DNA of 64,000 nucleotides, from the IMG/VR virus record IMGVR_UViG_3300029705_000009; one strand, written 5' to 3'. Under the pieces are notes generated by a model. The model was not told the DNA's origin and ran no database searches. It worked only from the letters and a program-made list of their open reading frames with translations. Below, piece by piece: positions 46,514-49,439 of the stretch. Source of the DNA: a virus (lineage: Duplodnaviria; Caudoviricetes). Position 1 is the first letter of the stretch, and each line of letters opens with the position of its first letter. The position numbers were made by a program, and so were the translations under genes.

Positions 46514-47662
46514 ATGTTAACAGCTTCTCAAATGATTACATTAAAATCAAAAATAAAAACAGAAATGCAAAGAAGAAATGGTTATGGTTCTTTAAGTACA
46601 TTTGCATCAACTACATATGATTTTACAAATACTCCTTCTTCTAACGGAACTATTTATGCAGAACAAGGGCAGAAAACAATTGATTTACTATTAAAAATAA
46701 AAGATATAAAAGGACTTAAAAATGTAGTACAAGGAGAAGATATTCCAGGGAATTATATAACCCCCGATTTAATAACAATGGTTGATAATTTAGCAACAGA
46801 AGCTATGACTGGAAGTTCTTCTTGTAGAGGTGCATGTACTGGTTTATGCGTTGGTACTTGTACATCTTCTTGCTCAGGTTGCAGTTCTTGTAGCGGATGC
46901 TCTGGCTGTTCTGGAGGTTGTGGATCTGGTTGTTCTAAAACATGTGAGAACGAATGTAGCTTAGGATGTATGACAACATGTGCTTATGGATGTGGTGAAG
47001 ATTGTACATCATCTTGCGGAATAGGTTGCTCTTCTACTTGCGGTACAGCGTGTAGTTCCAACTGTTGGGGAGCATGTTCTTTCATATGCTCTACATCTTG
47101 TAGTGGTTATTGTAAAAGCGCCTGTAGTTCTGCATGTATGGGATGCTCTGGGGAATGCCAAGGCTGTGATGGATGTAGTGGATGTTCTGAATCGTGTGCT
47201 GGTCAATGTACTGGCAGCGCTAAAGCAAGTCCTTGTTCCGGATGCGGTACAGATTGTACATCCTGTTCTAGTGCATGTAGACGTGCATGTGTAGGCTGTA
47301 CTTCCGGATGTTCTGGTTGTCAATCAGGATGTAATGATGCTTGCTCTTCTGGTTGTATGGGTTGTTCTGGCGGTTGTTCTAATATCTGTGTTGGCTGTGA
47401 CGGTGCTTGTACGTCTTCTTGTGGCGGTGCATGCAAGACTCAATGTGGTTCATGTTCGGGTACGTGTATGGCAAGTTGTTACGGTTGTTCTGGGCAATGC
47501 CAAGGTTATTGTGGAGGCTGCTCCGGGTGTAGTAGTGGATGCTATGGATGCTCTTCAAGTTGCTCTTCTGGATGTTCAAAATCATGCAGCTCAACATGTT
47601 CAACTACATGTTATAGCAATTGTACTAGCGGTTGTTTTGGAACGTTAACAGGTTCCACTTAA
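46514..47662 (+). CDS. Cys-rich CxxxC/CxxC-repeat protein (~72 Cys), probable radical-SAM substrate
   Basis: GGAGGTG RBS; ~100-aa Cys-free N-domain, then ~280 aa of C-x3/C-x2 repeats. Confidence 0.85.
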   Translation: MLTASQMITLKSKIKTEMQRRNGYGSLSTFASTTYDFTNTPSSNGTIYAEQGQKTIDLLLKIKDIKGLKNVVQGEDIPGNYITPDLITMVDNLATEAMTGSSSCRGACTGLCVGTCTSSCSGCSSCSGCSGCSGGCGSGCSKTCENECSLGCMTTCAYGCGEDCTSSCGIGCSSTCGTACSSNCWGACSFICSTSCSGYCKSACSSACMGCSGECQGCDGCSGCSESCAGQCTGSAKASPCSGCGTDCTSCSSACRRACVGCTSGCSGCQSGCNDACSSGCMGCSGGCSNICVGCDGACTSSCGGACKTQCGSCSGTCMASCYGCSGQCQGYCGGCSGCSSGCYGCSSSCSSGCSKSCSSTCSTTCYSNCTSGCFGTLTGST

Positions 47663-47707
47663 TAAAAATTGAATATTGAAAAATAATAAAAAAACCTTAA
47701 AAGGAGA

Positions 47708-48034
47708 ATGATTATGAGAAAAATCGAAGTTATTAATTTAGAAAGTACACACAAGGAAGCAGTTGATTATTTGGCAAGATTAGCTTATGAAGTACAGGCA
47801 AATAAAGATGTTATTACAGAGTTATTAGAGAGAAATAAGGATAATGTCATCTTTTTAGATAGTCCCATTTTTAACGAATATCATAAACGTTTTGAAAATG
47901 CTGTTGCTTCTTCCAAGATTGCTCAAGACGAATTTGCAAATAACGTTTTGCCTGAAAAATTCAAAGGGAATACTAATGCAGTTTGGACTTTAACCTATAA
48001 TACATATGAATTGCATATCGAATATAATGAGTAA
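47708..48034 (+). CDS. Accessory protein of the CXXX-repeat modification system
   Basis: Helical body ending in W.L.YNT.EL.I; lies between the Cys-rich gene and the rSAM gene. Confidence 0.55.
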   Translation: MIMRKIEVINLESTHKEAVDYLARLAYEVQANKDVITELLERNKDNVIFLDSPIFNEYHKRFENAVASSKIAQDEFANNVLPEKFKGNTNAVWTLTYNTYELHIEYNE

Positions 48035-48062
48035 CAATCTCATGAGTAAAAGGAGAATCTAA

Positions 48063-49439
48063 ATGGCCAAAGTGAGTATGCAATATCAAGATATGATTGC
48101 TAAATTATATCCCGAATTAGCTAGACAGGACAATCCGGAATTGGGTAACAATGACAAGACGCTGAGCAGAACAATTACATTTCAAGTGACTGATGATTGC
48201 AATCTTGCTTGTAAATATTGTTACCAAATTAATAAAGGAAAACGAAGAATGTCTTTGGATACGGCAAAGAAATATATAGACTTATTATTAACTGGAGAAA
48301 AAGGGATGAAGGAATATCTCCATCCTGAAAACTCTCCTGCTTTGATTATAGAATTCATTGGAGGAGAACCATTTCTAGAGATTGAATTAATAGATCAAAT
48401 TTGTGATTATATGTTTGACAAAATGATAGAAATGGATCACAAATGGTTAACCATGCATACCTTTAGTATTTGTTCCAATGGTATTTTATATTTTGATCCT
48501 AGAGTACAAAGATTTTTAAATAAGCACAAAAATCATTTATCATTCTCTGTAACAATTGATGGAAATAAAGAGTTGCACGATTCTTGCAGAGTGTTTCCTA
48601 ACGGAAGTCCATCATATGATTTAGCAGTCGCTGCAGCAAAAGATTGGATGAATCAAGGCAATTATATGGGAAGTAAAATTACCATTGCGCCGGGTAATGT
48701 TGATTATTTATATGACGCAATAATACATATGATAGACATGGGATATGATGAGATAAATGCCAACACTGTTTATGAAAAGGGATGGGATTTAGACTTAGCA
48801 AAGAAATTTTATAAGCAACTAATTAAGATTTCAGATTATCTGATCGAACATGATTTGTATGATAAATTATTTCTGTCTTTGTTCAGTGAGGACTTCTTCA
48901 AACCAAAATTAGAATCTGAAAATGAAAATTGGTGTGGAGGAACAGGTCTAATGTTATCATGCGATCCTGACGGATATCTATATCCTTGCATTAGATATAT
49001 GGAAAGTTCATTAGGTTGCCAAAGAGAACCTTATTGCATTGGTAATGTCGATGATGGAATAGGAATTACTGAAAGTGAGATTCAAAAAATAAAATGTTTG
49101 AACTGTATTACCAGACGTTCACAAAGTTCAGATAAATGTTTCTACTGCCCTATTGCTAGCGGTTGCTCTTGGTGTAGTGCTTACAATTATCAAGAGCTTG
49201 GAACCGCTGATGGTAGAGTTGATTATTCTTGTATAATGCATAAAGCAAGAGCACTAGCTAATGCATATTATTGGAGCAACATTTATAAAAAAAAGAATAA
49301 TAATAAGATTTATAAATTATATTTACCGGACAGTGAATCTCTGCAAATAGTCTCCCAAGAAGAGCTTGATACACTCAAAAATAATCCAAATATAGAATAC
49401 GTTAACGACTATGATACATATTTTATAGATAACGAGTAA
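48063..49439 (+). CDS. Radical SAM/SPASM peptide maturase (CXXX-repeat target type)
   Basis: CNLACKYC; FIGGEPFL; SPASM cysteines CGGTG...YPC...CFYCPIASGCSWC. Confidence 0.9.
   Translation: MAKVSMQYQDMIAKLYPELARQDNPELGNNDKTLSRTITFQVTDDCNLACKYCYQINKGKRRMSLDTAKKYIDLLLTGEKGMKEYLHPENSPALIIEFIGGEPFLEIELIDQICDYMFDKMIEMDHKWLTMHTFSICSNGILYFDPRVQRFLNKHKNHLSFSVTIDGNKELHDSCRVFPNGSPSYDLAVAAAKDWMNQGNYMGSKITIAPGNVDYLYDAIIHMIDMGYDEINANTVYEKGWDLDLAKKFYKQLIKISDYLIEHDLYDKLFLSLFSEDFFKPKLESENENWCGGTGLMLSCDPDGYLYPCIRYMESSLGCQREPYCIGNVDDGIGITESEIQKIKCLNCITRRSQSSDKCFYCPIASGCSWCSAYNYQELGTADGRVDYSCIMHKARALANAYYWSNIYKKKNNNKIYKLYLPDSESLQIVSQEELDTLKNNPNIEYVNDYDTYFIDNE

Follow-up and report, generated by a model that had tools for sequence, protein, structure and literature searches.

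Why should the tail operon of a prophage end in a protein carrying 72 cysteines and a radical SAM/SPASM enzyme, and where would a product of the two go? The question arose from a stretch of 64,000 nucleotides of a virus of the Caudoviricetes (IMG/VR record IMGVR_UViG_3300029705_000009), here called the window, whose element is a prophage of a gut-type anaerobe. A preliminary description had placed behind a tail-fibre gene a 382-aa protein with a Cys-free head, 72 Cys and one TGSAKASP break, then a small accessory gene and a radical SAM/SPASM gene. Our reading of the sequence reproduced this layout (Table 1). The three genes after the fibre gene are referred to as the cassette.

Table 1 Features of the cassette and its surroundings, in window positions.
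Feature	Position	Strand	Basis
Tail-fibre gene, 498 aa, tail module B	45004..46500	+	phrog_26419 tail fiber 5.7e-18; phrog_5073
RBS of the ladder gene, GGGAGGTG	46501..46508	+	sequence reading
Ladder gene, 382 aa	46514..47662	+	sequence reading
Head domain, residues 1–103, Cys-free, helical, mostly viral domain family	46514..46822	+	
Cys ladder, residues 104–374, 72 Cys, opening with the junction C-R-x-A-C-T-G-L-C	46823..47635	+	spacing, composition
Sole ladder break TGSAKASP, residues 233–240	47210..47233	+	
Accessory protein, 108 aa	47708..48034	+	AGGAG-type RBS; family alignment A4
Radical SAM/SPASM maturase, CXXX-repeat target family, 458 aa	48063..49439	+	TIGR04115; AGGAG-type RBS
Intrinsic-terminator-like hairpin: stem of 11 bp with 6 GC pairs, and a T-run	49447..49476	+	
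71-aa gene, probably lysogeny side, bordering the cassette	49488..49703	-	72% identity homologue beside the cassette in L003
Tyrosine integrase, prophage end	49745..51103	-	phrog_1 1.8e-38

All Cys of the first cassette protein fell within its ladder of 271 residues, spaced as C-x3 (51 gaps) or C-x2 (19 gaps) apart from the one break of 8 residues. This 3/4 periodicity exceeds chance by far. The ladder consisted of 27% Cys, 23% Ser and 19% Gly, with mostly Ser, Gly and Thr in the X positions, and held no His and only five Asp and five Glu, i.e., 10 acidic residues against 72 Cys. Such a Cys/Ser/Gly-rich, His-free composition is also compatible with a metal-thiolate protein. A tandem repeat at the DNA level was looked for beneath the ladder, and none was found. 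Three other metagenome samples carried the same DNA, with 0 nucleotide differences in the fibre gene or any gene of the cassette, which excludes misassembly as the source of the low-complexity ORF. The identical element was found on 16 contigs from several samples. Among relatives the ladder length varied widely, from 11 to 122 Cys, and Ser/Gly-rich breaks were also present, at variable positions.

The ladder protein gave no match in Pfam, and in PHROGs only a weak one to phrog_6085 (4.5e-8; function unknown), with none to tail families. No known fibre domain was recognized in it by sequence or fold (PHROGs, Foldseek against the PDB, BFVD, VIA wide), and none of the solved folds matched it. 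The HMM check with the CXXX-repeat TIGRFAMs, proposed in the preliminary description, gave a divided result: the maturase model was matched strongly (see below), whereas of the target models only TIGR04118 responded, with 14.1 bits (E 0.036) against a cut-off of 35, a shortfall to which low-complexity filtering may contribute. The target family PF27846 was found on only 19–26% of the members of look-alike Atlas clusters.

By sequence comparison, the head belongs to a domain family of its own, new here and found mostly in viruses. A search of 1.84 billion representatives recovered 186 clusters at E ≤ 1e-3, most of them viral, and nearly all full-length members carried a Cys ladder from near residue 105, behind the same junction motif. 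Within the head, E17, R20, R21, G25 and P41 were conserved in the family alignment, and at the junction C104, C108, G110 and C112 were invariant in 71 sequences. The AF2 model of the head was helical (pLDDT 83). Against the PDB, Foldseek returned nothing at E ≤ 0.001, the best VIA wide match was within noise (Z 5.6; fimbrin, Lon N-domain), and BFVD returned only the head's own family. The ESM Atlas look-alike clusters of the head, the accessory protein and the enzyme were 71–100% viral.

This architecture bears on an explanation in which the product never joins the particle. The head would then be an oversized leader or carrier, and the ladder, whole or cleaved, would be freed at lysis, similar to RiPPs, with an antimicrobial, signalling or metal-binding role outside the cell. 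We consider this unlikely. With 382 aa the putative substrate indeed exceeds the usual size of RiPP precursors by far, as had been remarked before. The protein is predicted to have two domains with a folded head, whereas classical precursors are short and consist of a core behind an unstructured leader. Neither a double-glycine site nor any other evident cleavage site was found at the conserved head–ladder junction, which, together with a head modelled as a folded domain of 100 aa, argues against such a product. Large leader-like domains do occur in other RiPP classes, and the characterised relatives of the enzyme, described next, also speak for a RiPP-like product.

The enzyme matched TIGR04115 with 514.5 bits against a cut-off of 350, over model positions 2–359 of 359, in agreement with the CXXX-repeat radical SAM/SPASM system suspected earlier. 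It also matched phrog_1802 (1.3e-66). The radical SAM motif CX3CX2C was intact (C46/C50/C53), and a SPASM-type Cys set was recognized (C291...G-x4-C309; C359-x2-C362-x5-C368-x2-C371; C390). The last SPASM spacing is x2, the textbook one being x3. A CXXX-type target gene adjoined the enzyme, the ladder gene ending 400 nt upstream on the same strand. Among the candidates scored, the enzyme family comprised 3784 clusters at E ≤ 1e-20. The TIGR04115 family is catalogued but unstudied, and our literature search found no paper and no experimental study on either a phage ladder/enzyme system or the CXXX-repeat modification system. The locus shares with the NCBIfam CXXX-repeat system (TIGR04115 with targets TIGR04114/04117/04118 and PF27846) the enzyme family and an adjacent target with Cys at every fourth position. 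It differs in that the target is a two-domain protein of 382 aa instead of a small peptide, the head and the accessory protein lie outside all NCBIfam and Pfam models, and the context is a phage tail operon. The small CXXX targets are named RiPPs in NCBIfam (TIGR04118), which favours a RiPP-like product here as well.

The closest solved structure was the SCIFF maturase CteB (5wgg, E 5.6e-25), which has both its radical SAM core and its SPASM domain in common with our enzyme. Of the other NCBIfam models, PapB was second-best with 172.5 bits, below the cut-off of 340 for its family NF047865, and the SCIFF maturase reached 112 bits. All three of these nearest characterised relatives (PapB, the SCIFF maturase and CteB) are RiPP makers, a further point for a product released outside the particle. 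PapB is a radical SAM/SPASM enzyme acting on repeated C-x3, and freyrasin is a ranthipeptide with six Cys-X3-Asp thioethers (PMC12373016). PapB shares the radical SAM/SPASM architecture with the enzyme here and needs an acidic acceptor, whereas our ladder is acid-poor; PapB-type links from Cys to Asp or Glu do not account for it, given 10 acidic residues for 72 Cys. The substrates differ as well, PapA being a short leader–core peptide and that of CteB being about eight times shorter than the ladder protein. The enzyme most probably modifies the ladder Cys in the anaerobic host before lysis. By analogy with CteB and PapB, it would most likely join Cys to carbon within the same molecule, closing many short thioether rings. 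A floppy low-complexity ladder would thereby become a rod or knot that is insensitive to redox conditions and resists proteases.

The enzyme had no counterpart to the N-terminal domain of CteB, a domain which we take to be peptide-binding and RRE-like. Its alignment began at CteB residue 93, and compared with CteB and eight maturase models it lacked the N-terminal 65–95 positions, the alignments starting at their positions 66–95. The 120 closest enzyme homologues likewise had no N-terminal peptide-recognition region, which leaves room for a separate docking protein. The accessory protein may replace this missing domain, and probably assists the enzyme. Its domain was found by HMM search in 91 of 97 loci, and in P0007/L098 the ladder protein and the accessory protein were fused in one ORF, as checked on the DNA. 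Other gene callers begin the accessory ORF at residue 3, giving 106 aa. The AF2 model (pLDDT 94.5) consisted of one strand, a helical hairpin and two strands. The protein had no match in Pfam, NCBIfam or PHROGs; with Foldseek against the PDB the best E was 0.39, and VIA wide returned generic helical hairpins throughout (best Z 7.5). The Atlas shape search gave three viral hypothetical clusters, and a 578-aa Atlas cluster named CXXX-repeat maturase superposed on the modelled fold over 99 residues (TM 0.75), which may point to a fusion of enzyme and accessory domain. The domain was present in none of the 120 closest enzyme homologues, and a search for longer proteins bearing the A4 domain was also empty. 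A single complex-prediction run, pairing alignment A1 of the head with alignment A4 of the accessory protein, scored 0.01 against a mark of 0.32, a result that speaks neither for binding nor against it.

The ladder gene began 13 nt downstream of the fibre stop codon. Every cassette gene had an RBS, the intergenic gaps were tight, no terminator-like site interrupted the run of fibre and cassette genes, and a strong hairpin of this type closed the operon 8 nt past the enzyme gene. Together, these signals indicate that the cassette is probably co-transcribed with the tail genes, and its three genes are probably the last of the late tail operon of the prophage. Such shared transcription, with no terminator before the cassette, would speak against a lysis-released RiPP. 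So does the gene content of the cassette itself: from the fibre gene to the integrase we found no protease, exporter or immunity gene, nor were there any among the frequent downstream families of relatives. The cassette of this phage is located at the extreme end of the prophage, beside the integrase. Behind the terminator, 71-aa ORFs were found at the equivalent place in L011 and L013, the integrase was represented on the identical contigs by PF00589 followed by TIM, the host tpiA began at 51271, and the GC content rose from ~0.33 to ~0.49. Cargo genes also collect at prophage ends next to integrases, and this position favours the release of a RiPP-like product.

In another reading, the cassette is silent in this genome and is merely carried along by a prophage that is decayed or composite. 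The window carried two paralogous tail-tip modules, and module B had no head genes of its own within the window and lay directly behind the lysis cassette, the holin and endolysin genes (34281–36100) immediately preceding its large TMP-like gene. These features would fit a composite element. In contrast, the three cassette ORFs were all intact, the identical element recurred on its 16 contigs from several samples, and an independent contig of ~50% identity (G003) kept both the order of endolysin and TMP-B homologue and a second phrog_27355 gene copy. A silent cassette is thus very improbable in our view. Module B as a decayed remnant was set aside on the same observations, i.e., the lysis-then-TMP-B order kept in G003 and the identity of the element across samples.

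Tail linkage, which the preliminary description had proposed from this locus, extended well beyond the window. The PHROGs in the two genes upstream of the cassette were compared by frequency across 32 non-redundant loci from IMG/VR, and 13 of the top 25 were tail fibre, tail collar, minor tail or tail families. Downstream of the relatives' cassettes, virion and tail proteins predominated among the annotated families, and one family was an endolysin. The co-occurrence of the cassette genes was strict: we scored it in 85 head-domain loci, two of them on truncated contigs, and in all 83 evaluable ones a maturase gene was located downstream on the same strand, at a median gap of 378 nt. The tail types hosting the cassette were unrelated, being siphovirus-like here and with a myovirus baseplate J / Gp48 in L004, L005 and L098, and in large phages Phage_fiber_rpt genes were found upstream. 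The relatives came from Lachnospiraceae, Anaerosporobacter, Anaerolentibacter and Clostridia MAGs. In many phages the cassette was embedded between fibre genes. Therefore, the receptor-binding slot assigned to the ladder gene earlier is only approximate; it does follow the fibre gene here. No single upstream fibre family went with the head, and none therefore stands out as its specific docking partner.

Several relatives carried additional domains. In P0026 a domain matching host-range/adsorption (1.5e-13) and tail (9.7e-13) PHROGs was located between head and ladder, and P0038/L041 and P0134 had, behind head and ladder, a C-terminal domain of 190 or 426 aa. Among closely related phages the C-terminal globular domain was fused, separate or absent. 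Such swappable domains are typical of fibre proteins. Modular tail fibres and receptor-binding proteins, like the ladder protein, have a conserved N-terminal domain, a variable repetitive middle and an optional, swappable C-terminal domain. The position of the gene after a fibre gene and the adsorption-type domain of P0026 are further similarities. To our knowledge, none of the known fibres has a Cys ladder modified by an enzyme as its framework. Both the place of the cassette between fibre genes in many phages and the fusions to adsorption-type or C-terminal globular domains argue against a RiPP-like product released outside the particle.

The same neighbourhood would also suit a factor acting during assembly. 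In its modified form, or with metal or Fe-S bound, the ladder protein would then help the fibres to assemble, whether as scaffold, chaperone or redox buffer, and would be absent from the finished particle. Chaperones of fibres are often encoded directly after the fibre genes, the composition of the ladder resembles that of metal-thiolate proteins, and a variation of 11–122 Cys is perhaps more than a precise structural part would tolerate. However, fusions of the adsorption and C-terminal globular types are more usual in fibre proteins than in chaperones, and a dedicated SPASM maturase is costly for a transient helper. We regard such a helper as improbable. Judged by gene neighbourhood alone, a component of the virion looks the same as an assembly factor or a lysis-released product.

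With moderate confidence, we propose that the last three genes of the late tail operon act together, the enzyme and its helper modifying the ladder protein into a tail-fibre appendage of the virion. The modified product would most likely become, or decorate, this appendage. The comparison with ~90 other phage loci suggests, but does not establish, that the enzyme staples a tail appendage. A more specific version is possible and held more tentatively: a structural tail protein with dozens of thioether staples (up to 72 here, 122 in relatives), a head that is a new anchor or recognition fold, and a 108-aa protein that is a new SPASM docking partner.

Being intact and having turned up in several samples, the element is amenable to prophage induction or heterologous co-expression. 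If the ladder is stapled and located on the virion, RiPP chemistry by radical SAM enzymes would reach from small secreted peptides to large viral structural proteins, and the ladder protein would be the first enzyme-cross-linked virion appendage. For RiPP enzymologists, the maturase would be a natural enzyme handling dozens of repeats per substrate, and the large family of 3784 clusters would gain a function. Disulfides are unreliable in reducing environments. Thioether stapling, if true, would give phages of strict anaerobes a way to stabilise an exposed part of the tail.

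The cassette starts 13 nt past the fibre stop codon. Its first ORF, preceded by the ribosome-binding site GGGAGGTG, encodes the ladder protein (382 aa). No cysteine was found in the head (residues 1–103), and all 72 are confined to residues 104–374, spaced as C-x3 51 times and as C-x2 19 times, with one 8-residue break, TGSAKASP. Ser, Gly, Thr and Ala form the bulk of the residues in between. No DNA tandem repeat was found beneath the ladder. The accessory protein (108 aa) and the maturase (458 aa) follow, each with its own ribosome-binding site. This ORF read-out confirmed the preliminary description of a Cys-free head of ~100 aa, ~72 cysteines interrupted once, a small accessory gene and a radical SAM/SPASM enzyme. 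DNA from three other metagenome samples had 0 differences across the cassette genes and the fibre gene before them, each time with the host gene tpiA adjoining the element, showing that the ladder ORF is no assembly artefact. Across relatives the ladder had 11 to 122 cysteines; 72 is large, yet short of the extreme. Some phages (loci L014, L021 and L027) encoded two head-plus-ladder proteins per single maturase, those of L021 having 87 and 113 cysteines.

A head-domain ORF was present in 85 loci from IMG/VR and genomes, and in 83 of these a same-strand maturase lay downstream at a median gap of 378 nt. The contigs of the remaining two end too early, so that the coupling held in 83 of the 83 evaluable loci. 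In the window there was no terminator-like site between fibre gene and cassette, and a strong hairpin with a T-run lies 8 nt past the maturase stop codon, indicating that the three genes close the late operon. Beside this arrangement stands the rival explanation that the cassette is a silent remnant.

The proposed linkage to tail genes extended beyond the fibre gene directly upstream in the window. The two upstream genes of 32 non-redundant loci matched 171 PHROGs. Thirteen of the 25 most frequent were tail fibre, tail collar fibre, minor tail or tail proteins; the others were one head protein and families without assigned function. The cassette was found in tail types unrelated to each other: in a siphovirus-like module (the window, L002 and L003), between fibre-like genes (gut phage record MT835573), after baseplate J/Gp48-type genes (L004, L005 and L098), and after Phage_fiber_rpt genes (contigs of up to 183 kb). 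The relatives came from Lachnospiraceae, Anaerosporobacter, Anaerolentibacter and other Clostridia. Another rival explanation is a RiPP-like product set free at lysis. The annotated families downstream of the cassette in relatives were mostly virion or tail, plus one endolysin, and no protease, exporter or immunity gene was found alongside it.

Head homologues (query residues 1–104) formed 186 clusters at E ≤ 1e-3 among 1.84 billion representatives. The ladder was present in 89 of the best 150, usually starting at residue 100–126, and another 47 were short or truncated sequences. In a 71-member alignment R21, C104, C108, G110 and C112 were invariant, and E17, R20, G25, P41 and L111 nearly so, revealing a conserved head–ladder junction, C-R-x-A-C-T-G-L-C. 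AlphaFold2, given the family alignment, predicted with confidence that the head folds into a small helical domain (pLDDT 83, pTM 0.79), for which solved structures gave no convincing match. BFVD matches were uncharacterised phage proteins of the same family only. Look-alike clusters in the ESM Atlas were 71–100% viral, and some carried PF27846, a Pfam model of CXXX-repeat targets. Judged by its sequence relatives, the head defines a separate domain family.

Several relatives carried further domains. In protein P0026, about 200 residues between head and ladder matched “host range and adsorption protein” and tail PHROGs (1.5e-13 and 9.7e-13) and, weakly, CBM_4_9. C-terminal domains followed the ladder in P0038 of locus L041 (190 aa) and in P0134 (426 aa). 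The state of the 190-aa domain varied among close relatives in a single phage cluster: it was fused to the ladder in 23 loci, was a separate, overlapping ORF (about 50% identity) in about 10, and was missing from still others. Modular fibre proteins likewise keep their N-terminal domain conserved, with a repetitive middle that varies in length and a distal domain that can be swapped. The fusions point towards a fibre-like role of the ladder protein; the rival explanation here is an assembly-time or metal-binding helper.

The preliminary description had pointed to the CXXX-repeat TIGRFAMs, and the maturase matched TIGR04115 (“radical SAM peptide maturase, CXXX-repeat target family”) with 514.5 bits (cut-off 350), far above PapB (172.5 bits) and the SCIFF maturase (111.9 bits). 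In the maturase the cluster motif CX3CX2C lies at C46/C50/C53, and the C-terminal cysteines form a SPASM-type set. Among the scored candidates, 3784 clusters belonged to the family at E ≤ 1e-20, a large group that the sources name by its TIGRFAM label only. The closest solved structure was CteB (5wgg, E 5.6e-25), but the first CteB residue aligned is 93. Eight other RiPP maturase models likewise align only from their positions 66–95 onwards, and the cluster motif lies 33–60 residues from the N-terminus in all of the 120 closest homologues, indicating that the whole family lacks an N-terminal extension. In CteB this extension is reportedly a peptide-recognition domain.

Intein-type domains (PF14890, PF13403, PF07591, PF14528) were found in maturase homologues of 580–1181 aa (P0172, P0199, P0239, P0242, P0244, P0246, P0274 and P0275; loci L040, L071 and L077), so inteins recur in the family. 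In the homologue of loci L006 and L007 (8001–9293) three TAG codons, but no other stop, interrupt the reading frame, suggesting that a TAG-recoded phage carries this system too; next come a head-like ORF and a ladder region.

Accessory homologues from 22 loci gave a good alignment, in which W93 never varies and E28, F55 and Y58 hardly do, and a family HMM found the domain in 91 of 97 loci searched. Pfam, NCBIfam and PHROGs contain no model for it. The structure model (pLDDT 94.5, very confident) has one strand, a long helical hairpin and two strands, and its PDB matches were generic helical hairpins only. P0007 (L098) joins ladder and accessory protein in one ORF, as checked on DNA, and L094 has a tandem-duplicated accessory protein. 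A 578-aa CXXX maturase cluster in the Atlas superposes on the accessory fold (TM 0.75); sequence searches gave no confirmation of the domain there, and it stays a lead.

The prophage has a G + C content of about 0.33 (range 0.31–0.43, mostly about 0.33–0.37) and the host flank, with tpiA-pgk-gap adjoining the prophage end, about 0.49 (0.47–0.50), a difference unusually large for integrated DNA. CheckV estimates for relatives imply genomes of about 170–200 kb. The two tail-tip modules are paralogous, on the same strand, and each has a TMP-like gene of 1479–1600 aa. Module B, the second, has no head genes of its own within the window. The order of lysis genes followed by module B recurs at about 50% identity in the independent IMG/VR contig G003, which likewise has two TMP-like and two phrog_27355 genes; simple decay of module B is therefore not favoured and was set aside.

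Features of the prophage and its host flank
Feature	Position	Strand	Remark
Prophage	1-51100		
First tail-tip module	1658-20000		
phrog_27355 genes	7853-8752; 42693-43586		one per module
HNH/homing-endonuclease-like genes	20574-21986; 33172-34242		free-standing, amid structural region
502-aa protein	24422-25930		Ala/Glu/Asp-rich, probably coiled-coil; no PHROG match; local GC peak 0.43
Holin and endolysin	34281-36100		between the modules, directly before module B
Module B	36892-46500		
Fibre gene	45004-46500	+	
Ladder protein	46514-47662	+	
Accessory protein	47708-48034	+	
Maturase	48063-49439	+	
71-aa gene	49488-49703	-	between cassette and integrase; conserved in relatives (72% identity in L003); Pfam matches weak, coiled-coil-type only
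Tyrosine integrase	49745-51103	-	closes prophage
Host flank	51271-64000		

The type of system is already catalogued (TIGR04115, TIGR04118, PF27846), though uncharacterised. Our literature search found no paper studying the CXXX-repeat system or tying it to phage tails. This analysis newly defines the head and accessory families and adds the coupling in 83 of 83 loci, the fusions, the boundary of the operon and the lack of a recognition domain in the maturase.

In the best-supported explanation, the maturase would act late in infection, within the anaerobic cytoplasm, and modify the cysteines of the ladder with the accessory protein assisting; the modified product would then join or decorate the tail. 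The chemistry, to judge from CteB and PapB, is likely the formation of Cys-to-carbon thioether rings. PapB installs six thioethers, in CXXXD repeats (PMC12373016), and needs an acidic acceptor side chain, whereas the ladder has only 10 Asp/Glu, which rules out such an acceptor for its cysteines. Thioethers would hold in the reducing gut, where disulfides would not, and this may be the rationale for stapling.
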